Notes under the pieces: model-generated
Database searches by the model: none
What the model was told of the DNA's origin: nothing
What the model saw: only the letters and a program-made list of their open reading frames with translations
Assembly (NCBI GenBank): GCA_015069325.1
Contig: SVIV01000002.1
Location: 181,694-245,693 of the forward strand
Length of the DNA: 64,000 nt
From: Clostridiales bacterium
GTDB taxonomy: Bacteria > Bacillota > Clostridia > Christensenellales > UBA1242
Reading direction: 5' to 3'
Position numbers and translations under genes: made by a program
Part shown: positions 22,420-30,649 of the stretch, in pieces
Layout: the number at the start of each line of letters is the position of its first letter
How positions within the stretch are numbered: the first letter of the stretch is position 1

Positions 22420-23136
22420 TTATAATAATTCTATTTCTAAAATATCTTTAGTCGTGCTAGACATTGTTTTTAAAAATTTATATGCTTTAAAAGCTTCAAT
22501 TATATGACTATCCCAAATATCCCAACCACCATGTTCAGTTGAATGTGACAGCTTAAAATATTTTCCTTCTCGCATTTCTTGAATAAACATATCTGCAGTT
22601 ATGTCATCACACTGCATAACAATCATTTTAATAAGCTTTTTATAAATTTCTCTCGCGTCAAAAGAATCATTTACATCTGGTATATTTTTCACATCACACT
22701 CATAAAAACAACTCAAAATTTCTCTACGTTTTTTCAATAACCTTATGCAAGAACAAGCATCTTTAAATTCAAAAGCACACATAGCTAAATCTTCTAATGC
22801 TTCTGGAATGCCATTGATATCATATTCTCCTATATGCAACTGTTTATCAACCTTTTCAGCAATTTCTTTAAATAGCTGTTGTTTCTCTTGAATATCCTTG
22901 CAATCTTCTAAAATTTGAATTTCTTTCAATAATTGTTTTGTTTTTAATACATCGCTTTTTGCATATTTTGCATAAATACCACCAAAATACGCTTTAGAAA
23001 ACATTTCCATAAATTCAGACGGATATAATTCATCAAGTTCTTGCATCATCACCAAAATTTTTTCTTTTGACATTTTTGATACGTCTTCAGCAAGTTGCTC
23101 GAAATATCGTTTTTTCAATATACTTTCTTGTTTCAT
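22420..23136 (-). CDS. hypothetical protein
   Basis: 238-aa ORF starting 14 nt after asnA, probably co-transcribed. No motif recognised. Confidence 0.5.
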   Translation of the reverse strand: MKQESILKKRYFEQLAEDVSKMSKEKILVMMQELDELYPSEFMEMFSKAYFGGIYAKYAKSDVLKTKQLLKEIQILEDCKDIQEKQQLFKEIAEKVDKQLHIGEYDINGIPEALEDLAMCAFEFKDACSCIRLLKKRREILSCFYECDVKNIPDVNDSFDAREIYKKLIKMIVMQCDDITADMFIQEMREGKYFKLSHSTEHGGWDIWDSHIIEAFKAYKFLKTMSSTTKDILEIELL

Positions 23137-23149
23137 GCTATGCTTCCCC

Positions 23150-24145
23150 CTATAACAACTCTATCTGTAATTCTTCACACTGTTTGAGTGTGTCTTTATC
23201 CCAATAACTTGCTTGAACTTCTCCAATATGTGCACGACCAAGAAGCAACATACATAATCTGCTTTGACCTATTCCACCACCAATTGTAAGCGGCAACTCT
23301 TCTTTGACAATTGATTGATGATAAGCATATTCTAATCGTTCTTGCTTACCTGATTTTTCAAGTTGCTTAATTAAAGTATCTTTATCAACCCTAATTCCCA
23401 TACTTGAAATTTCAATAGCCATATCCAACACTTCGTGATAGAAAAGTAAATCTCCGTCTAAACTCCAATCATCATAGTCTGGCGCTCTCGTATCGTGCGG
23501 TTTGCCATCGCTTAAATCATCACCAATGCCAATAATAAATACAGTTTTATATTGTTTTGTAATCAAATATTCTCTTTCTTTATCTGTTTTATCTGGATAC
23601 AAATCCAAAAGTTCTTGACTTGTTATAAAGAAAACATCTTTGCATATTTCCACACCATCAAACCCTTTTGTCTTTAAAAATTCACTAGTGTCCGCAATTG
23701 CTTTAACAATCTTTTTGACAGTTTTCTTTAAAAAATCTACAGTTCTATCTTTTCTAACTATAACTTTTTCCCAATCCCATTGATCAACATAAATTGAATG
23801 AGTTTCATCCATTTTATCATCTCTTCGAATTGCAGTCATATCAGTGTATAAACCCTTATGAATAGGAAAATCATATTTTTTTAGTGCCATACGCTTCCAT
23901 TTAGCAAGAGATTGAACTATTTCGAGCTGTTTACCATCTTTCAAAATATCAAACGATACTTTACGCTCAACTCCACTTAAATCATCTTGCAAACCACTTT
24001 CTTTCGTTACAAGTAATGGTGCTGAAACTCTTGTTAAATCTAATGCTCCAGCCAATTTTCTTTCAAACTTATCTTTGATAAATTTTATATATTTTTGTTT
24101 ATCTAATATTCTTAAATGTGTATATTTTTCTTTAATAAATTTCAT
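23150..24145 (-). CDS. asnA: aspartate--ammonia ligase (asparagine synthetase A)
   Basis: 331 aa with LDLTRVSAPLLV..SGLQDDLSG.ERKVSF and a class-II aaRS-like core ending GGGIGQSRLCMLLL. Confidence 0.9.
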   Translation of the reverse strand: MKFIKEKYTHLRILDKQKYIKFIKDKFERKLAGALDLTRVSAPLLVTKESGLQDDLSGVERKVSFDILKDGKQLEIVQSLAKWKRMALKKYDFPIHKGLYTDMTAIRRDDKMDETHSIYVDQWDWEKVIVRKDRTVDFLKKTVKKIVKAIADTSEFLKTKGFDGVEICKDVFFITSQELLDLYPDKTDKEREYLITKQYKTVFIIGIGDDLSDGKPHDTRAPDYDDWSLDGDLLFYHEVLDMAIEISSMGIRVDKDTLIKQLEKSGKQERLEYAYHQSIVKEELPLTIGGGIGQSRLCMLLLGRAHIGEVQASYWDKDTLKQCEELQIELL

Positions 24146-24213
24146 AATTTTTCTCCTTCAACTTAATATTTTGGCAAATTTTGAAATTACAATATATTTA
24201 AGGAACATCAAAT

Positions 24214-24288
24214 TCACCTAAAAACTCTCCTTAAATATTTATTATTGTTATTATCATCTTCGCCCGCTACGGCGTTTGTCTTTTTCAT
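24214..24288 (-). promoter_or_regulatory. second Asn-rich mini-ORF in the asnA leader (MKKTNAVAGEDDNNNNKYLRRVFR)
   Basis: RBS AAAGGAG 5 nt before the ATG at 24288. Four consecutive Asn codons. Stop at 24216-24214. Confidence 0.4.
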
Positions 24289-24330
24289 AACATCTCCTTT
24301 TTTCAATTTTTTTTATAGTTAACAACACTA

Positions 24331-24429
24331 AGTAAAAATAGCACACCCTTTAGAGAGTGTGCTGTGATATGTGTTATTTTAATAACATCAATATAAACAA
24401 AACACTCTCTTGGATTTCAAGAGAGTGTT
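24331..24429 (-). promoter_or_regulatory. asnA leader attenuator: hairpin 24401-24429, terminator 24331-24362, alternative pairing between them
   Basis: Minus-sense AACACTCTCTTG-aaatc-CAAGAGAGTGTT followed by UUUUGUUUAU, then GCACAC-ucucuaaag-GGUGUGC followed by UAUUUUU. AGAGAGUGU of the first hairpin can instead pair with ACACUCUCU, which overlaps the terminator 5' arm. Confidence 0.55.
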
Positions 24430-24450
24430 GATTATCTATTTTAAATATGC

Positions 24451-24534
24451 TTAGATTTTTTCAACAACAAAAATGAAACCCATATTAAATGCGTTTAAAT
24501 TATTATTGTTGTTATTATTTATAACTCTAAACAT
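24451..24534 (-). promoter_or_regulatory. Asn-run leader peptide (MFRVINNNNNNNLNAFNMGFIFVVEKI) upstream of asnA
   Basis: Promoter TTGACA-N17-TGtgaTAAAAT at about 24565-24590. RBS AAAGGAGAAGG. Seven consecutive AAT/AAC codons plus two more Asn. Confidence 0.55.
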
Positions 24535-24666
24535 ACCTTCTCCTTTCATTTAGATGTCTCTATTTTATCACATAATTCACCATATGTCAATACATTTTGA
24601 AAAATTTTTAAATTCATAACAACCCAGTCAATCAATTACACATTTTAGAGGAGTTATAGTATCTTA

Positions 24667-25095
24667 TTATGGTTTATATTTTAAAATAAAGTGTGAATGA
24701 TTTTCTCCATCAACAATAAAACCATGCCTTTCGTAAAATCTTTTAGCTGGATTTGTTTTAAATGTGTCTAAATAAATTGGTTTATTAAGTTGATTTGCTT
24801 GTTTTATAAAATGTTGCATTATCTCAGAACCCAAACCATTGTTTCTAAAGTTTGGAAATAAACACAAAACATCAACAGTAATTTTTGTCTCTTCTTCTTT
24901 AAAATAAACAAACCCCGCGATCTCGTTTCCCACCATTATTTTAAACAAACTTGATTTTAATCTCTCCAAATGTTGTTCCATTATACTTTGATCAAACTGT
25001 CCAAAAAATTCTATAACATATTTTTCAAAAGCATCTTTTTGCATTTTTAAATATAAATCTCGATCTTTTTGTTCATATAATTTCAATTCAAACAT
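24667..25095 (-). CDS. GNAT N-acetyltransferase (array unit 6)
   Basis: 142 aa from the ATG at 25095 (MFELKLYEQ...). RNNGLGSEIM acetyl-CoA loop. The track start at 25179 translates the promoter region. Confidence 0.8.
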   Translation of the reverse strand: MFELKLYEQKDRDLYLKMQKDAFEKYVIEFFGQFDQSIMEQHLERLKSSLFKIMVGNEIAGFVYFKEEETKITVDVLCLFPNFRNNGLGSEIMQHFIKQANQLNKPIYLDTFKTNPAKRFYERHGFIVDGENHSHFILKYKP

Positions 25096-25117
25096 ATTTT
25101 TATCCCTTAATAATTTC

Positions 25118-25170
25118 ATTATACCACACAAATAAAAAAATGTATACACTTTGAATGCAAAATGTATACA
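25118..25170 (-). promoter_or_regulatory. unit-6 promoter with twin TGTATACA palindromes
   Basis: TGTATACA at 25141-48 and 25163-70, 22 bp apart. Extended -10 TGtGgTATAAT with TATAAT at 25118-23. Confidence 0.65.
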
Positions 25171-25184
25171 TTTTATCAAAAAAA

Positions 25185-25435
25185 TTAAATTTTACTTTTC
25201 CTACTCTGTCTATCCACATTCAAAACCACCCCTATTGCACTCATAAAAACAAGGAGCGCAGTTGAACCTGCAGAGTTTTGGGGCCCCCGCAAATCGTGAG
25301 AATTGCGGGGAAAAGGAAAAACGGAGCGTCAAATTTTGTGCAAGCAAAGCGAGCACAACTCACAAAGCGAGTGTTTTGACGCAGGTAGTGGCAAACCCGT
25401 TGGTGGTATGCTACCTGTTACCACGAGTTATTGCA
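25185..25435 (-). repeat. decoy copy A of the ftsW 3' tail (with structured insert)
   Basis: Encodes ..PPTGLPLP | insert | AGSTALLVFMSAIGVVLNVDRQSRKSKI* and aligns to ftsW 29534-29680. An in-frame TGA lies inside the insert. Confidence 0.85.
25272..25382 (+). ncRNA. structured insert, copy A (111 nt)
   Basis: Hairpin CCCCGCAA/TTGCGGGG, outer stem GCGTCAAA/TTTGACGC, inner hairpin TTGTGC/GCACAA, purine linker GGGGAAAAGGAAAAAC. The strand call is tentative and rests on G-T pairs. Confidence 0.45.
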
Positions 25436-25446
25436 CTATGGATTTC

Positions 25447-25965
25447 TTATTTAATTTTTTCATCTTCAAGTGGTTCACATTCAATTAATTTACTTTCATA
25501 AGCCAAATAATTAAACAATTGCATAAAAACCTGTTCAACCTTAGGCACCCTGCTACCACTGTTGCAAAAACAAATTGCGCAACCCATATGTGGATAACTC
25601 CAACTTTCTTTATCTTCATTTTTTATGAATTTTATTGTAAAAGCATCTTCAGTTTTTATAATATTTAAAACATTCGCTTCATCTTCTGGCCAATCTTCAC
25701 TAATATAAGATATTATGTTCCCTTGTAATACTGGACGATATTTGTCATCATTCTTCCCTACAGCATTAAATAATTGATTAAAAACACCATACGTTATTTT
25801 ATCGCTTTTATCTATTTCAAAAATTTTATTTTCTTTATGATTCTCTGGCAACCAATATAAATCCAAATTGCCACCAACTGTCATTACAAATGACTTACCA
25901 TTTTTATCGGTAATTTTTACATCATAATATCCTTCTTTATTGTTTCTTAGTTGTTTTGTAATCAC
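25447..25965 (-). CDS. hypothetical protein (array unit 5)
   Basis: 172-aa ORF with a GTG start after RBS AGGAGAA. Own promoter TTTACA-N17-TGgTAATAT. The stop abuts decoy tail A. Confidence 0.55.
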   Translation of the reverse strand: MITKQLRNNKEGYYDVKITDKNGKSFVMTVGGNLDLYWLPENHKENKIFEIDKSDKITYGVFNQLFNAVGKNDDKYRPVLQGNIISYISEDWPEDEANVLNIIKTEDAFTIKFIKNEDKESWSYPHMGCAICFCNSGSRVPKVEQVFMQLFNYLAYESKLIECEPLEDEKIK

Positions 25966-25981
25966 TATTTTCTCCTAAAAA

Positions 25982-26057
25982 ATATTACCACATTTTCAAA
26001 CAATTGTAAATAGAATGAAATAAAAAATGTATACACTTTGATTACAATATGTATACA
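25982..26057 (-). promoter_or_regulatory. unit-5 promoter region with twin TGTATACA palindromes
   Basis: TGTATACA at 26028-35 and 26050-57, 22 bp apart. Divergent -10 TAATAT at 25982-87. Confidence 0.6.
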
Positions 26058-26070
26058 TTTCATTAAAAAA

Positions 26071-26327
26071 TTAAATTTTACTCTCTCTACTCTGTCTATC
26101 CACATTCAGCACCACCCCTATCGCACTCATAAAAACAAGGAGCGCAGTTGAACCTGCAGAGTTTTGGGGCCCACGCAAATCGTGAGATTTGTGGGGAAAA
26201 GGAAAAACAGAGCGTCAAATTTTGTGCAAGCAGAGCGAGCACAAATCACAAAGCGAGTGTTTTGACGCAGGTAGTTGCAAACCTGTTGGTGGGATTGAGC
26301 CTCTTAACATCAGTTATTGTATTATAA
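26071..26327 (-). repeat. decoy copy B of the ftsW 3' tail (with structured insert)
   Basis: Same architecture as copy A. Insert at 26158-26268. Confidence 0.85.
26158..26268 (+). ncRNA. structured insert, copy B (111 nt)
   Basis: Same helices as copy A. The P1 3' arm reads ATTTGTGGGG, which makes a G-T pair on the plus strand. Confidence 0.45.
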
Positions 26328-26846
26328 AGTTACCCAATACCTTTCTAAATTTATTCCCTCTCTTTCAAGTGTTCTAGTATCCTCATATTGTCCACCATTT
26401 GCTAAAATACATTTTCTTGATGCAATGTTGGTGTCTTTACAAGACAATAGCACTTTATCAATTCCCAACTCTTTGCATTTCTTTAACCCAAGAGCAAGTA
26501 ATTTTTTACCATAACCTTTCCTTCTTTCATCAACAGCAACACTATCTCCACAATGCCCGCCATAATTCAATAAGAAATCACTTAATTTATGTCTAATTTG
26601 AAACATTCCTATTAACTTGTTATCAGACTTCCTTATACAAATGTATTGCGTTGAAGGAACATATCCTGCAGGTAAATTTTTTCCCTCTCTCCAATCATTA
26701 TTTTTTTGTAGCCATGTTTCAAAATCATCTTTTCTTAAATCTCCACAGCCATCCATACTAGAACCCGATTCAATCATATCTTTTTTATATCTTTCTACTT
26801 GCTCTTTATATTCAGCTGTTGGTATTATTAACTCTAATTCATCCAT
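26322..26846 (-). CDS. GNAT acetyltransferase (COG3981-like; array unit 4)
   Basis: 174 aa with VAVDERRKGYGKKLLALGLKKCKELG, the acetyl-CoA binding motif. The stop codon lies inside the conserved repeat boundary ttattgtattataa. Confidence 0.8.
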   Translation of the reverse strand: MDELELIIPTAEYKEQVERYKKDMIESGSSMDGCGDLRKDDFETWLQKNNDWREGKNLPAGYVPSTQYICIRKSDNKLIGMFQIRHKLSDFLLNYGGHCGDSVAVDERRKGYGKKLLALGLKKCKELGIDKVLLSCKDTNIASRKCILANGGQYEDTRTLEREGINLERYWVTL

Positions 26847-26875
26847 AAATTACACCCCACGCTATCACTATATCA

Positions 26876-26928
26876 ATTATACCACACAAATAAAAAAATG
26901 TATACACTTTTCTTACAATTTGTATACA
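26876..26928 (-). promoter_or_regulatory. unit-4 promoter with twin TGTATACA palindromes
   Basis: TGTATACA at 26899-906 and 26921-28, 22 bp apart. TGtGgTATAAT with TATAAT at 26876-81. Confidence 0.65.
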
Positions 26929-26942
26929 TTTCTATAAAAATT

Positions 26943-27130
26943 TTATTTGAGATTCACTCCACTCATTTCTCTCGGTCGGAATGACAGTGTTTTACTTTGT
27001 TTATCTACGTTGAGAACAACTCCGATGGCAGACATAAAGACAAGCAAACTTGTTGACCCTGCAGAGATGAACAGAAGTAGTAATCCTGTTGGTGGGATTG
27101 AGCCCCTTAACATCAGTTATTGTATTATAA
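26943..27130 (-). repeat. decoy copy C of the ftsW 3' tail (no insert; intact alternative C-terminus)
   Basis: Reads in frame as IPPTGLLLLFISAGSTSLLVFMSAIGVVLNVDKQSKTLSFRPREMSGVNLK*. It lacks the ~110-nt insert. Confidence 0.85.
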
Positions 27131-27140
27131 AATTTCACAC

Positions 27141-27170
27141 AAAAAAAGAGCAAAATTTATTGCTCTTTTT
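27141..27170 (-). terminator. terminator of the PnuC unit
   Basis: Stem agagcaa/ttgctct with A and T runs. Nearly identical to the hairpin at 29064-29091. Overlaps the pnuC stop. Confidence 0.7.
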
Positions 27171-27864
27171 GCTTATATTGTTTTTTCTCTTCTAACTTCC
27201 AATGAATCAGACCATAGGTATCATTGGTTAAAAAAACAAAAAACGTAACAACGGTTGGCAAATAACCAATTCCGCTATTCACAACAACAATCGACCATAA
27301 AACGATTAAAATAATATCATTAAGAATAAAAGCTAAAGCATAATAGCTACATCTTCTAAGCATTAAATATGAAGCAACTAAAGATGTAATTAAAGACAAT
27401 GTGCTTATAATCAACTCACTAGTGTTTAATGCTTTTAATAAAAAATAAAATCCAATTGTTGCAAAAACTGTTGCAACAGACAAATATGCATATTCCTTTC
27501 CTTTTATCTTATTAACTTCAACAACTTGTGTATTTTCCTTATTTTTATTTCTCAACCAAGTAATTATTGAAAAGAAATAAATAGGAATCATTAATACAAT
27601 ATAAATTATTGCTTCACCATAATAACGTTGAACTATTGATATAATGGCATATAAAACACAATATATAATATTAAGAAATGGCGAAACAATTAAACCCTTA
27701 GCCAAAGTAAAAACAGCAATAATGCCAACTAATGAAGTAATTAACGAAAAAGCATTTTTATCTAAACTAAAAACAAAACACAAAACAATTGCCAACAAAC
27801 TAACAAATAAAAATAAAATTTCAAACAAATTCCAATTCTTAAAAAATTTTTTAAGCATAAGCAT
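27157..27864 (-). CDS. pnuC: nicotinamide riboside transporter PnuC family (array unit 3)
   Basis: 235 aa, 7-8 TM helices. N-terminal WNLFEILFL...LAKG...YGEAI..., a PnuC-like pattern. Confidence 0.75.
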   Translation of the reverse strand: MLMLKKFFKNWNLFEILFLFVSLLAIVLCFVFSLDKNAFSLITSLVGIIAVFTLAKGLIVSPFLNIIYCVLYAIISIVQRYYGEAIIYIVLMIPIYFFSIITWLRNKNKENTQVVEVNKIKGKEYAYLSVATVFATIGFYFLLKALNTSELIISTLSLITSLVASYLMLRRCSYYALAFILNDIILIVLWSIVVVNSGIGYLPTVVTFFVFLTNDTYGLIHWKLEEKKQYKQKEQ

Positions 27865-27878
27865 TCTCCAATGAGTTA

Positions 27879-27931
27879 ATTATACAATAAAAATAACAAA
27901 ATGTATACAAATTGCATGCAAAATGTATACA
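27879..27931 (-). promoter_or_regulatory. unit-3 promoter with twin TGTATACA palindromes
   Basis: TGTATACA at 27902-09 and 27924-31, 22 bp apart, flanking a TTGCATGCAA centre. TATAAT at 27879-84. Confidence 0.65.
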
Positions 27932-27947
27932 CTTTAACAAAAAAAAT

Positions 27948-28198
27948 TTAAATACTACTTTTTCTACTCTGCCTATCTACATTAAGCACAACCCCTATTG
28001 CACTCATGAATACTAGCAAACTTGTTGAGCCTGCATTTTGGCCCCCGCAAATCGTGAGATTTGTGGGGAAAAGGAAAAACAGAGCGTCAAATTTTGTGCA
28101 AGCAGAGCGAGCACAAATCACAAAGCGAGAGTTTTGACGCAGGTAGTGGCAATCCTGTTGGTGGGATTGACCCATTAACATCAGTTATTGTATTATAA
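27948..28198 (-). repeat. decoy copy D of the ftsW 3' tail (with structured insert)
   Basis: GSIPPTGLPLP and AGSTSLLVFMSAIGVVLNVDRQSRKSSI* are separated by the insert at 28035-28140. The upstream part is in a different frame. Confidence 0.85.
28035..28140 (+). ncRNA. structured insert, copy D (106 nt)
   Basis: P1 CCCCGCAAAT/ATTTGTGGGG (one G-T pair), P2 GCGTCAAA/TTTGACGC, P3 TTGTGC/GCACAA. Confidence 0.45.
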
Positions 28199-28219
28199 AA
28201 AAGCACAAAAAAAGAGTCT

Positions 28220-28699
28220 TTACAACTCTTTTTCCTCACTTTCTTGAATAACGTCTTGCTTGTGCAAGACCTCCAAACATTCTTGTTTAAACTTAGCAAT
28301 TTCCTCTTTATCTTCACCAAAATAAAGTTCACCTGCTATATCTAATAATTCATCTATAGTCATTAAATTATCATCATCTTTATAATAATTTATACCACTT
28401 CGTCTATTGGTATAATCTTGAGCAAGCAAACATGCCTCATCATATCTTGTCACACCATGATTTTTGCTTAAATCAGTATTCCTCAATGCCTTAATAAAAT
28501 ATTTTGGTTCTTTATATGGATCAAAAACATATTCACCAGTTTTACTTCTAGATAAATGTATTCGTGCACTCTCACTCAATCTTGTCATAAAAGTTTGAAA
28601 TGCATTTTTATTGTCGATAACAAATTCAATATGATAAAAATGATGACCTACACACTCATTACCACAAAAAACTCTAATTTCCTTAAATCGTTTTTTCAT
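28220..28699 (-). CDS. hypothetical protein (array unit 2)
   Basis: 159 aa from the ATG at 28699 (MKKRFKEIRVF...), preceded by RBS TAGGAGAAAG. The track start at 28780 translates the promoter. No motif recognised. Confidence 0.55.
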   Translation of the reverse strand: MKKRFKEIRVFCGNECVGHHFYHIEFVIDNKNAFQTFMTRLSESARIHLSRSKTGEYVFDPYKEPKYFIKALRNTDLSKNHGVTRYDEACLLAQDYTNRRSGINYYKDDDNLMTIDELLDIAGELYFGEDKEEIAKFKQECLEVLHKQDVIQESEEKEL

Positions 28700-28720
28700 A
28701 CATCTTTCTCCTATGCTTGC

Positions 28721-28773
28721 ATTATACCACACAAACAAAAAAATGTATACACATTGATTATAATTTGTATACA
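28721..28773 (-). promoter_or_regulatory. unit-2 promoter with twin TGTATACA palindromes
   Basis: TGTATACA at 28744-51 and 28766-73, 22 bp apart. TGtGgTATAAT with TATAAT at 28721-26. Confidence 0.65.
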
Positions 28774-28791
28774 TTTGCATTAAAATTTTTT

Positions 28792-29050
28792 TTAGATTTT
28801 ACTCTTCCTACTCTGTCTATCTATATTTAGAACAATCCCTATCGCACTCATAAAAACTAGCAAAGAAGTTGAGCCGGCATTCTGGGGCACCCCGCAAGTT
28901 GCAGGAGCGAAACTTGTGGGGATAAGGAAAAACCAAGCGTCAATTTTTGTGCGACCAACAGCGAGCACAAACTTAAAAGCGAGTGTTTTGACGCAGGTAG
29001 TGGCAAGCATGTTGGTGGAATTGAACCTCTTAACATCAGTTATTGTATTA
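28792..29050 (-). repeat. decoy copy E of the ftsW 3' tail (with structured insert)
   Basis: Tail AGSTSLLVFMSAIGIVLNIDRQSRKSKI*. Insert at 28879-28994. This is the most diverged copy. Confidence 0.85.
28879..28994 (+). ncRNA. structured insert, copy E (116 nt)
   Basis: P1 CCCCGCAAGTT/AACTTGTGGGG carries a compensatory A-T to G-C change relative to copies B and D. The loops differ but the stems are kept. Confidence 0.45.
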
Positions 29051-29063
29051 CAAATTTTTGCAT

Positions 29064-29091
29064 TAAAAAAAGAGCAAATTTATTGCTCTTT
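29064..29091 (-). terminator. terminator of the LytTR unit
   Basis: Stem agagcaa/ttgctct with A and T runs. Confidence 0.7.
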
Positions 29092-29093
29092 AC

Positions 29094-29444
29094 CTAAAAT
29101 TCTCTTTCATGTTCTCGATTTAATTTGGGGATGACATTTCTTTCAAAATCCACCACAGATAATTTTTTTAGTTGCATACCATTTCTAAATTTAACAGTAA
29201 CAAAAGACCCATTACTTAAATATGAATTCATTTCATTTGGATTTATATAAACAACGCAATTGTGTTTATAGCAAAATACTTTAGGCAACTTGTTTAATAA
29301 GTTTTCCATATCGCCCCATTGCAATGTAACGGTTTCTCCATCGATAAAATGTGTATCACATTTAAAACCATCTTCAACTATATACAAAATATCTCTTGAA
29401 TTAAATTCAATTCTTTTCCATGATCCAAATGGCGTAGCTTGCAT
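29094..29444 (-). CDS. stand-alone LytTR-type DNA-binding domain protein (array unit 1)
   Basis: 116 aa. RIEFNSRDILYIVEDGFKCDTHFIDGETVTLQWGDMENLLNKLPKVFCYKHNCVVYINPNEM fits the LytTR pattern (..I.yie......i.t.......sl..le..Lp..F.r.hrs.iVN...i). No receiver domain. Confidence 0.65.
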   Translation of the reverse strand: MQATPFGSWKRIEFNSRDILYIVEDGFKCDTHFIDGETVTLQWGDMENLLNKLPKVFCYKHNCVVYINPNEMNSYLSNGSFVTVKFRNGMQLKKLSVVDFERNVIPKLNREHEREF

Positions 29445-29464
29445 ATTGTTTCTCCTACTTTTTC

Positions 29465-29518
29465 ATTATACCACAAAAATAAAAAAAATGTATACACTTT
29501 GATTACGATTTGTATACA
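29465..29518 (-). promoter_or_regulatory. unit-1 promoter with twin TGTATACA palindromes, directly after the ftsW stop
   Basis: TGTATACA at 29489-96 and 29511-18, 22 bp apart. TGtGgTATAAT with TATAAT at 29465-70. Confidence 0.65.
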
Positions 29519-29533
29519 TTTATATTGAAAATA

Positions 29534-30649
29534 TTAAATTCTACCTTTTCGAGATTGTCTATCAACATTCAACACCACCCCTATCGCCGACATAAAAACA
29601 AGCAAACTTGTACTGCCGGCACTTATGAAAGGCAACGGCAGTCCTGTTGGTGGGATCGAACCTGTTACAACAGCGACATTAAGAAGGGTTTGCACTGCAA
29701 TAACAAATGCGACTCCGCAAGAAAGCATACTGCCAAAGCGGTCTTTTGCATTAAGACCTATTTTTATAATTTGCAAACATAAAAATAAGACAAACGAAAG
29801 ATATAAAACCACTCCCACAAATCCTATTTCTTCTCCCATAATTGAAAGAATAAAATCTGATTCAGCAAATGGAAGAAATAAATATTTTTGACGAGAGTTG
29901 AAAAGCCCAACACCAAACCATCCACCATCACCAAGAGAATAAAGCGATTGAATAAGCTGAAAACCTTCACCCTGCGGAGACGCCCAAGGATCAATAAACG
30001 CTAACAATCTTTTCATTCGATATGGCTCTGCAATAATTAGTAGTGGCACTGCAAGACCTGCAGGAATTGAAAACATAAGCGTATGCTTTTTGCTCATTCC
30101 ACCTATAATAAGCATACACAGCAAAACAAAACATATGCACATAGTTACACTCATACTAGGCTCCAACATAATCAGCAAAGCCATAACACCGCCTACCACA
30201 AGCACAGGAAATAACCCTTTTAAAGTTTTTACCTTATGATTATTATCTGCCAAATATGATGCTGTAAAAATCACCAATGCAAATTTTGCCACTTCTGATG
30301 GTTGAATTGAAAAGCCTAAAAGAGAAATCCATCTTTTTGCACCATATATTTCAACGCCCAAACCTGGAATAAAAACAAGGGATAAAAGCACACACGTTCC
30401 AACTACAATCCACCACTTAAGCTTTGCTAAGATATGATAATCCACCATTGAAAAGAAAATTAATCCACATATGCCCAAAATAAAACCAAAAAGTTGTTTA
30501 AAAAGAAAAAATTCGCTATTTCCATAATGATGCTGAGCAGAATAAAAACTTGCACTGTAAACCATAACACAGCCAAACAGTGCTAAGATTGCCACTATTG
30601 AAAAAATTAAAAGATATTCACCCTTGAAATTCAATTTTTTCAGTTTCAC
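29534..30649 (-). CDS. ftsW: SEDS-family peptidoglycan polymerase FtsW/SpoVE
   Basis: 371 aa, about 10 TM helices. C-terminal GSIPPTGLPLPFISAGSTSLLVFMSAIGVVLNVDRQ matches the SEDS signature. Located after murD in the dcw cluster. Confidence 0.9.
   Translation of the reverse strand: MKLKKLNFKGEYLLIFSIVAILALFGCVMVYSASFYSAQHHYGNSEFFLFKQLFGFILGICGLIFFSMVDYHILAKLKWWIVVGTCVLLSLVFIPGLGVEIYGAKRWISLLGFSIQPSEVAKFALVIFTASYLADNNHKVKTLKGLFPVLVVGGVMALLIMLEPSMSVTMCICFVLLCMLIIGGMSKKHTLMFSIPAGLAVPLLIIAEPYRMKRLLAFIDPWASPQGEGFQLIQSLYSLGDGGWFGVGLFNSRQKYLFLPFAESDFILSIMGEEIGFVGVVLYLSFVLFLCLQIIKIGLNAKDRFGSMLSCGVAFVIAVQTLLNVAVVTGSIPPTGLPLPFISAGSTSLLVFMSAIGVVLNVDRQSRKGRI

Follow-up and report, generated by a model that had tools for sequence, protein, structure and literature searches.

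How is asnA, the gene of aspartate-ammonia ligase, controlled in a clostridial genome where no T-box precedes it? The window analysed here is a stretch of 64,000 nucleotides (nt) of contig SVIV01000002.1 from a Clostridiales bacterium, and asnA lies on its minus strand at 23150..24145 (331 amino acids (aa); Pfam PF03590 (AsnA), E = 1e-96), behind a leader of ~440 nt with two small open reading frames (ORFs). Attenuation by leader peptides is textbook knowledge, established for a small number of amino acids and chiefly in Proteobacteria and Actinobacteria; Firmicutes normally use T-boxes. A preliminary description of the DNA had proposed that asnA is governed by Asn codons in leader peptides; its observation is real and its interpretation largely right. 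We suggest that the whole leader is probably a two-stage ribosome-mediated sensor of Asn-tRNA supply, a reading built throughout on sequence comparison of related metagenomic leaders.

All features of the leader lie on the minus strand, and between 24590 and 24145 their order is promoter, ORF1, terminator T1, a small hairpin, terminator T2, ORF2 and asnA. The sigma-70-type promoter with extended -10 (24562..24590) consists of TTGACA at 24590-24585, a 17-nt spacer and TGaTAAAAT with its hexamer at 24567-24562; it agrees with the consensus at 11 of 12 positions and has the extended -10 TG. TTGACA and the TGn -10 are kept in nearly all relatives, the exception being L209 with TTGCAT. A terminator pattern scan returned three sites in the 1-kilobase (kb) region against 0.2 expected from shuffles, and for the fold of the 431-nt leader the z-score is -6.8 relative to shuffles; both results argue against chance. 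The promoter, both mini-ORFs and the hairpins were all recovered at the same minus-strand coordinates as in the preliminary description, and its first hairpin with U-rich tract and its third hairpin, taken for a terminator, were both found by the scan as T1 and T2.

ORF1 (24451..24534) encodes the Asn leader peptide MFRVINNNNNNNLNAFNMGFIFVVEKI behind a strong Shine-Dalgarno (SD) sequence, AAAGGAG, at 24546-24540. Asn accounts for 9 of its 27 codons, and seven of these are consecutive (AAU AAU AAC AAC AAU AAU AAU, 24499..24519), just as first described; we propose the seven as the regulatory codons. Seven cognate codons in a row are found in hisL as well. The run is the sole one of at least five Asn in the six frames of the 64-kb window, against ~1e-4 expected from base composition at 32.5% guanine plus cytosine (GC). 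With this expectation and one run observed a chance origin was rejected.

The relatives used for comparison make up 20 distinct asnA leaders including that of the window, 15 of them picked without reference to the leader. An AsnA scan of GTDB gave 80 loci, in which Asn-rich mini-ORFs were seen upstream of asnA only in L003 and L004, two close relatives that retain both ORF1 and ORF2. Twelve further distinct loci came from AsnA homology in a large protein collection plus contigs (L201, L202, L205, L207, L209, L211, L212, L214, L215, L216, L217 and L218). The loci selected by a metagenome scan for the ORF2 motif described below (L081, L115/L148, L138, L139, L182 and L198) are not counted toward the invariance of that motif. 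Alignment A1 comprises 15 leaders and was used for stage 1; alignment A2 covers the part from ORF2 to asnA. Support for a helix is given as the percentage of alignment cells paired, the compensatory pairs, the number of 500 shuffles reaching the score, and slid controls; the shuffles take no account of phylogeny.

The same arrangement is kept upstream of asnA in 19 further distinct leaders: a promoter, ORF1 with its own SD and an Asn run in frame, a terminator, and ORF2, again led by an SD. Fourteen of the 19 were picked by AsnA similarity alone (66-91% identity), and all 14 carry this layout, save that some are without T2 or the stage-2 helices. Pairwise AsnA identity among the loci of the leaders goes down to 66%. 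The succession of SD, AUG, five codons and an Asn-rich stretch in frame is kept in 18 other full leaders (19/19 with that of the window), and ORF1 of the relatives holds 5-9 Asn codons, mostly as runs of 3-7. An alignment of asnA upstream regions from relatives had been named as the check to be made, and the reading frame, ribosome binding site, Asn run and alternative helices all turned out to be conserved, with compensatory changes.

The terminated state of stage 1 is built from three helices. In the RNAalifold consensus of A1, region 1 (24489..24511; CAACAAUAA and AAACGCAU) pairs with region 2 (AUGGGUUUCAUUUUUGUUGUUGA, 24461..24483) in 94-98% of the cells: the Asn codons CAACAAUAA pair with the F-V-V codons UUUUUGUUG, and a second pairing inside ORF1 joins AAAC.CAU with AUG.GUUU. 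T1, located by the terminator scan at 24389..24431, consists of a 5' arm (regions 3 and 4), the loop UGAAAUCC, a 3' arm and a U tract; its hairpin (24429-24401) has 12 base pairs (bp), is followed by UUUUGUUUAUAU, and is 98.8% paired across leaders with 4 compensatory pairs. The third helix, P0, appears in the minimum free energy fold and joins UCUAAGCAU at the ORF1 stop (24447..24455) to AUGUUUAGA at the start codon (24534-24526), with 83% of the cells paired and 3 pairs changed on both sides. Taken together, P0, 1:2 and T1 are 93.6% paired with 9 compensatory pairs, a score reached by 0/500 shuffles and with slid controls at 44-52%.

Region 2 has an alternative partner in the 5' arm and loop of T1, and this pairing is the antiterminator, which the preliminary description had not found. 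It lies in the 3' part of ORF1 and has two portions: GGGUUUCA (24481-24474) has as its partner UGAAAUCC (24419-24412), made up of the end of the 5' arm of T1 and the loop, and UGUUGA (24466-24461) binds UCAACA (24431-24426), at the base of the hairpin. The antiterminator is paired in 99% of the cells, with 3 compensatory pairs, 1/500 shuffles and slid controls at 29-57%. Unusually for a terminator loop, that of T1 is conserved; its consensus UGAAAYYC is the complement of GGGUUUCA, and it tracks GGGUUUCA via G-C, G-U and A-U exchanges. When divergent leaders are searched by RNAduplex without bias, this two-part duplex is found again at -11 to -17 kcal/mol, and the lower helix occurs in five forms (UGUUGA/UCAACA, UGCUU/AAGCA, UUGUAAU/AUUACA, GAUGCUAUUUA/UAAAUCAGCAC and GUUGUUGAUUUA/UAAAUUAACAC). 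As the antiterminator sits in the 3' part of ORF1, the earlier worry over the ~80 nt between the Asn run and the first hairpin is removed.

The constraint on this part of ORF1 seems to act on the RNA. In L115 the bases GGGUUUC are read in a different frame, and in L216 and L217 the ORF1 stop falls just before them; in all three the bases are kept, which argues for selection on the RNA and not on the peptide. ORF1 as a conserved functional peptide was rejected, since frame and stop vary while the bases persist. Codon choice inside the Asn run is likewise conserved across the leaders of A1, because the run pairs with UUUUUGUUGUUG.

The energies of the stage 1 helices are about -13 (1:2), -12 (antiterminator) and -14 kcal/mol (T1), near the values of the trp leader in E. 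coli. When the last Asn codon of the run occupies the A site, the ribosome protects ~12 nt beyond it, and region 2 begins 5 codons on, so a stalled ribosome leaves region 2 free; a ribosome at the ORF1 stop covers the lower half of region 2. We picture the following course of events. Once the promoter fires, ORF1 would be translated, and with plentiful Asn-tRNA the ribosome would reach the stop codon and cover region 2, so that T1 forms and transcription ends; any leak past T1 would be caught by T2. Were ORF1 not translated at all, the Asn codons would pair with region 2 and T1 would form anyway. With scarce Asn-tRNA the ribosome would stall on the seven Asn codons, with its footprint at least 2 codons short of region 2, and the free region 2 (GGGUUUCA...UGUUGA) would bind T1 at the foot of its 5' arm and in its loop, whereby T1 would fail to form and polymerase would read on.

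All the sequence-level marks of an attenuator are thus present: an SD-led leader ORF, a run of cognate codons, an intrinsic terminator, an antiterminator exclusive with it, and a 1:2 pairing that includes the regulatory codons. We hold with high confidence that stage 1 is a ribosome-mediated leader-peptide attenuator of classical layout, and from its codons and helices we infer the response of the leader to Asn. The original proposal of Asn-codon attenuation of asnA was largely right, but the main antiterminator is not the cross-pairing between T1 and T2 that it had in mind.

The complementarity behind that cross-pairing does exist and leads to the second terminator. T2, another product of the terminator scan, lies at 24330..24363; its hairpin (24363-24340) has 10 bp and is followed by AUUUUUACUU. 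It was found in 13/20 leaders, and T2 and the stage-2 helices are missing from some. Between T1 and T2 stands a small spacer hairpin (24370..24389) with the core UGUUAU/AUAACA and flanking G-C and U-A pairs. It had been described as a helix of 8 bp; the hairpin exists, but it has a core of 6 bp with two flanking pairs, and its 3' arm is AATAACAC, not AATAACAT. A hairpin at this position is predicted in 9/11 T2-bearing relatives, with varying sequence.

The 5' arm of T2 nearly copies the 5' arm of T1 and is hence complementary to the T1 3' arm. The previously noticed complementarity of the T1 3' arm AGAGAGUGU to ACACUCUCU in the T2 5' arm corresponds to a duplex of -13.4 kcal/mol in the window; across leaders the duplex has -12 to -16 kcal/mol and the T2 hairpin itself -10 to -18. 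The cross-match is tighter within leaders (-13.3) than between leaders (-11.8 kcal/mol), and L211 and L198 covary. As no ORF lies between T1 and T2, the cross-pairing is the sole visible route by which the antitermination decision could reach T2. A T1 3' arm freed by the antiterminator would pair with the T2 5' arm and thereby pass the decision on, a relay that we infer from the modelled duplexes.

ORF2 (MKKTNAVAGEDDNNNNKYLRRVFR, 24214..24288), the second mini-ORF with its own ribosome binding site seen before in front of asnA, is led by AAAGGAG at 24300-24294, and an SD-led ORF2 is kept in 20/20 leaders. No terminator was found between ORF2 and asnA in the A2 leaders, so ORF2 would act on exposure of the asnA SD, i.e. 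on translation. The terminator/antiterminator switch first envisaged therefore holds for stage 1 but apparently not for ORF2.

Five segments make up the putative SD switch. Segment a (24226..24239, ORF2 codons 17-20) is an SD mimic, AAUAUUUAAGGAGA, within ORF2; segment b (24194..24207) is an anti-SD, UGUUCCUUAAAUAU, with either a or c as partner; and segment c (24151..24166) is the SD region of asnA, UUAAGUUGAAGGAGAA. Segment d (GGUGAAUUU, 24210..24218) overlaps the stop codon of ORF2 and has segment e (AAAUUUGCC, 24173..24181) as its partner. In A2, b (CUCCUUAAAU) shows complementarity to a as well as to c, and d (GUAAAUUU) pairs with e (AAAUUUAC). Segment a is almost identical to the asnA SD region, with which it shares ~10 nt, AUUUAAGGAG; the a:b duplex has -11.9 kcal/mol, and a:b and b:c are near iso-energetic. 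The combination of a:b and d:e is 91% paired with 8 compensatory pairs and 0/500 shuffles, and d:e alone is 90% paired with 4 compensatory pairs. The b:c helix, paired in 93% of the cells, is the one chosen as consensus by RNAalifold. Since d:e crosses both alternatives, it would form either a pseudoknot or a third state.

At the level of sequence, then, the SD of asnA can pair with an anti-SD that has an alternative partner in ORF2, the arrangement of translational attenuation, in all but L004 and L215. Segment a begins directly after the Asn run of ORF2; in the window four Asn codons (24241..24252) stand immediately 5' of it, and in 17/20 ORF2s there are at least two at this place. ORF2 would be translated from its own strong SD, and ribosomes arriving at its end would melt a and d:e, leaving b free for c and asnA off. 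Were the ribosome to stall at Asn-5, or at the run's first Asn (12 nt ahead of a), a would stay free and pair with b, perhaps with d:e as a stabilising pseudoknot, which would leave the SD of asnA exposed. Segments a, b and c would then be the counterparts of regions 2, 3 and 4, a translational copy of the classical scheme with the same sign as stage 1. The direction of this second stage is drawn from physiology, and we regard direction and mechanism together as evenly poised between right and wrong.

Several observations weigh against the two-stage reading. Most antiterminator pairs are invariant within the main clade, and with a mean column identity of 74% in A1 the sequences are so akin that the shuffle controls overstate significance. 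When the antiterminator is enforced, the minimum-energy fold still has T2 in 9/11 leaders, which leaves the relay with a kinetic argument only. In stage 2 the b:c helix is without covariation, c being invariant as an SD, and when accessibility of the asnA SD was modelled at equilibrium under ribosome masks, the means of 0.51, 0.42, 0.50, 0.32 and 0.44 showed no consistent direction. If the stall fell on the last Asn codon of the run in ORF2, the ribosome would cover a, and the opposite outcome would be predicted. Asn in ORF2 beyond the motif is not conserved, ranging over 0-7 codons, with none in L198 and one each in L202 and L218. Segments a, b, d and e are absent from L004 and L215. Finally, two loci have asnA without the leader: L001 (JAFTIY010000065.1; AsnA 85% identical), with an unrelated GC-richer upstream region, and L002 (CAMOCI010000007.1; AsnA 69%), with a fragment of the FtsW C-terminus just upstream of asnA. 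It follows that the leader was lost, or asnA moved, more than once.

L004 (2854-2997) and L215 (about 1065-1200) form a variant class in which ORF2 keeps NAVAGE and stops 16-23 nt before the asnA AUG, at the SD. This points to occlusion or coupling in place of an RNA switch in that class.

The best-conserved feature of ORF2 is not its Asn run but a motif that in the window reads AAC GCC GUA GCG GGC GAA (24259..24276), i.e. N-A-V-A-G-E, with a GC hairpin whose stem joins 24274-24271 to 24264-24261; the motif occurs once in the window. All ORF2s have it as AAY GCC GUN GCR GGC GAN, N-A-V-A-G-(E/D), with the 4-bp hairpin Y3-G16, G4-C15, C5-G14, C6-G13 paired in 100%. Within the 15 unbiased leaders it varies at four third-codon positions only, the changes being synonymous or E/D. 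The chance that 4 variable sites of 18 all hit the six third positions is 15/3060 = 0.005, and this confinement argues for selection on the peptide. The invariant third positions, the C of GCC and the C of GGC, are exactly those paired in the hairpin, and GCC and GGC are rare codons in these genomes (7% and 22% in asnA). For comparison, the third base is kept at 1/42 four-fold sites of invariant residues in asnA; that the rare paired bases are invariant thus argues for selection on the stem too. Both the NAVAG(E/D) peptide and the 4-bp GC hairpin therefore appear to be under selection. Conservation of the nascent chain beyond the needs of the RNA, as looked for in arrest peptides of the SecM, TnaC and MifM type, is found in the 15 unbiased leaders as a matter of conservation only.

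These properties bear on another view of ORF2, as an arrest or pausing module rather than a second Asn sensor. Here the NAVAG(E/D) peptide, together with acidic residues and the GC hairpin, would hold the ribosome or pause RNA polymerase, and the choice between a:b and b:c might thereby depend on another signal, for instance free Asn, free Asp, a protein or Mg2+, stage 1 still being an Asn attenuator. The third-position pattern of the motif, its two stem positions held fixed despite rare codons, the acidic residues that follow it in almost all leaders, and its invariance beside a fluctuating number of further Asn codons all speak in favour. The two or more Asn codons directly 5' of a in most ORF2s are, on the other hand, the geometry expected of codon-dependent stalling, the tests made here indicated no ligand or protein partner, and RNAduplex searches of the GC motif against the leader and asnA gave no consistent long-range partner. 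We consider an arrest module unlikely. If true, asnA would receive through the pseudoknot-type SD switch (a:b, d:e, b:c) a second and different input beyond tRNA-Asn charging, for which free Asn, free Asp and a trans-acting factor are candidates. Three roles of the motif are conceivable, each at low confidence: its hairpin might pause RNA polymerase and so synchronise the first ribosome, its nascent chain might have an effect that the acidic residues behind it make sharper, or it might be bound by a factor.

A second alternative would have the leader read by a trans-acting factor or ligand, either a TRAP-like protein on AAY repeats or a riboswitch, with the small ORFs incidental. The AAU/AAC triplets do form a regular repeat, the conserved codon choice in the run betrays a constraint at the RNA level, and the leader has strongly conserved RNA structures. 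Yet incidental ORFs would hardly keep a strong SD and AUG in frame with the Asn run in 19/19 full leaders and likewise for ORF2 in 20/20, nor confine the variation of the ORF2 motif to synonymous sites; the codon choice is explained by pairing with UUUUUGUUGUUG, and no Rfam family matches. We hold this alternative to be very improbable. That ORF1 and ORF2 are functional small peptides, or that promoter to T1 is a small RNA gene, unrelated to asnA control, is extremely improbable: promoter and terminator do delimit a discrete transcript of ~165 nt, the weak sub-threshold Rfam matches are small RNAs with terminator hairpins, and attenuator leader transcripts can act in trans, as reported for rnTrpL/peTrpL of Sinorhizobium (PMC7968998), but the unit was seen only directly upstream of asnA in all cases examined, the C-terminal peptide of ORF1 is not conserved where frame or stop differs although the bases are, and an antiterminator pairing would be purposeless in a free-standing small RNA.

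The reading of the leader as a two-stage Asn-tRNA sensor can be set against the known RNA families. No Rfam leader family was found in the leader region at E <= 10 or in the whole window at gathering score, in line with the earlier remark that the element stands outside the classical leader-peptide families. T-box (RF00230) control was tried and rejected: the covariance model gave no match at gathering score or at E <= 10, confirming what had been proposed, and a regular-expression search for the T-box sequence came out empty. The same scan does find T-boxes in L071 and L006. The best Rfam matches are sub-threshold terminator look-alikes, SpF11 with 26.9 bits (cut-off 54) and the PyrG leader with 23.2 (65). 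No Asn-specific leader-peptide attenuator was found in Rfam 15 or in the literature searched in full text. Stage 1 thus has every sequence-level feature of an attenuator and belongs to no curated family.

In the classical attenuators, hisL of E. coli and Salmonella, trp, leu, thr, pheA and ilv, we find the same SD-led ORF with a cognate run, the same 1:2, 2:3 and 3:4 pairings and intrinsic terminator, a stop codon placed so that the terminating ribosome covers region 2, and similar helix energies. The asnA leader differs in its amino acid and gene (Asn/asnA) and in its host, a clade of AT-rich, uncultured Clostridia; its antiterminator uses the terminator loop besides the 5' arm, the start/stop helix P0 is present, and a second terminator and a second leader ORF are added. 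There is no sequence or Rfam relationship between them. In translational attenuation of ermC, cat and cmlA, occupancy of the leader ORF selects between alternative hairpins, one of which hides the downstream SD. The same logic is proposed for ORF2, but with Asn codons as trigger in place of a ribosome-bound antibiotic, with an SD mimic, anti-SD and SD plus a helix crossing both alternatives, and, in our model, with a stall that would preserve a helix instead of melting one.

A T-box upstream of asnA, as in other Firmicutes, shares the gene, the tRNA-Asn charging signal and the terminator/read-through output with our leader; the latter has no T-box sequence or structure, and charging would be read via the ribosome and not by direct tRNA binding. 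Leader-peptide attenuators have been reported from Firmicutes before: in bacilli a His leader precedes paralogs of hisS/hisZ (PMC2965389), and ilvBNC of S. aureus has a leucine-rich attenuator peptide (PMC5794164). According to Naville and Gautheret (PMC2965389), leader peptides were not known outside Proteobacteria and Actinobacteria before the His leader in bacilli. Common to both and to asnA is ribosome-mediated attenuation replacing a T-box in Gram-positive bacteria; amino acid, gene and lineage differ, and those two are single-stage as far as they are described. The mgtCBR leader of Salmonella has tandem attenuators with two short ORFs thought to sense different signals, both acting on transcription (PMC3641672). 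It is, like the asnA leader, one long leader with two short ORFs each thought to steer RNA structure; in the asnA leader the ORFs share the codons of one amino acid, and translation seems to be the target of the second. New in the asnA leader are most likely the Asn specificity, the duplicated terminator, the second leader ORF acting on the SD and the dual-constrained peptide/hairpin motif.

If our reading is true, attenuation gains a new specificity, Asn, in a clade of uncultured gut Clostridia. The same signal would apparently be read twice, at transcription and then at translation initiation, and the duplicated fail-safe terminator may be relay-switched. The NAVAG(E/D) hairpin motif, constrained at the peptide and RNA level, is without known counterpart. 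Its small size would allow the leader to be used as an Asn-responsive genetic part. Annotations sometimes list the small ORFs in front of asnA as hypothetical genes; leader peptides would be the better label.

How widely the leader occurs was followed by several scans. The metagenome scan for the motif gave 120 matches, mostly chance ones inside genes of high-GC DNA; of the matches in AT-rich DNA, all that are followed by sufficient sequence stand 100-150 nt in front of an asnA homolog. L142 is a copy of the L003 leader whose sequence ends before asnA. In L203 (Ga0257091_10248725, 1-290) the junction between a GC-rich sequence and the asnA leader falls exactly within the GC motif (...GTTGCGGGCGAAGAAGAT...); this is probably a chimera of the assembly to which the GC-rich motif gave rise. 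A loose motif search with 3 mismatches in the 80 GTDB loci yielded only noise, and L014, L021, L028, L046, L047, L062 and L078 had unrelated leaders on inspection.

An Rfam scan of 20 more distant asnA loci showed a T-box in 2 and no Rfam element in the other 18. In Intestinibacter bartlettii (L071, 2619-2858) a canonical T-box of 117 bits lies directly upstream of asnA, and in an Acutalibacteraceae metagenome-assembled genome (L006, 1312-1545) a T-box lies 1.5 kb upstream. With the leader limited to relatives and T-boxes in others, the Asn leader seems a lineage-specific alternative to the T-box. Class II aminoacyl-tRNA synthetase genes of the Asp/Asn/Lys type flank asnA and its leader in several relatives (L202 3219-3993; L214 1-975; L216 1-465 and 2285-3390; L217 1-436 and 2573-3390), with the Pfam domains tRNA_anti-codon and tRNA-synt_2 and in some cases GAD.

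Within the window, a 238-aa ORF (22420-23136, minus strand) starts 13 nt after the asnA stop and is probably co-transcribed with asnA. It has no Pfam domain, and the relatives do not keep it behind asnA, a weak match in L207 being the exception; a conserved operon partner of asnA was therefore rejected.

On the other side of asnA, at 25118-29602 of the minus strand, lies a repeat array with six copies of a ~330-nt repeat placed 840-1000 bp apart. Each repeat holds the 3' end of an FtsW/RodA-like gene and the inverted motif TGTATACA...TGTATACA. The full FtsW/RodA-like gene (29534-30649, minus strand, 371 aa) ends in ...IPPTGLPLPFISAGSTSLLVFMSAIGVVLNVDRQSRKGRI, and the genes adjoining it look like murD and mraY when their translations are read. 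Between the repeat copies stand single small genes, among them GNAT acetyltransferases and a 235-aa membrane protein. The array looks like serial cassette insertion at the ftsW 3' end; no integrase was seen in the part of the array region that was read. The last cassette, a GNAT gene at 24667-25179, abuts the asnA promoter.

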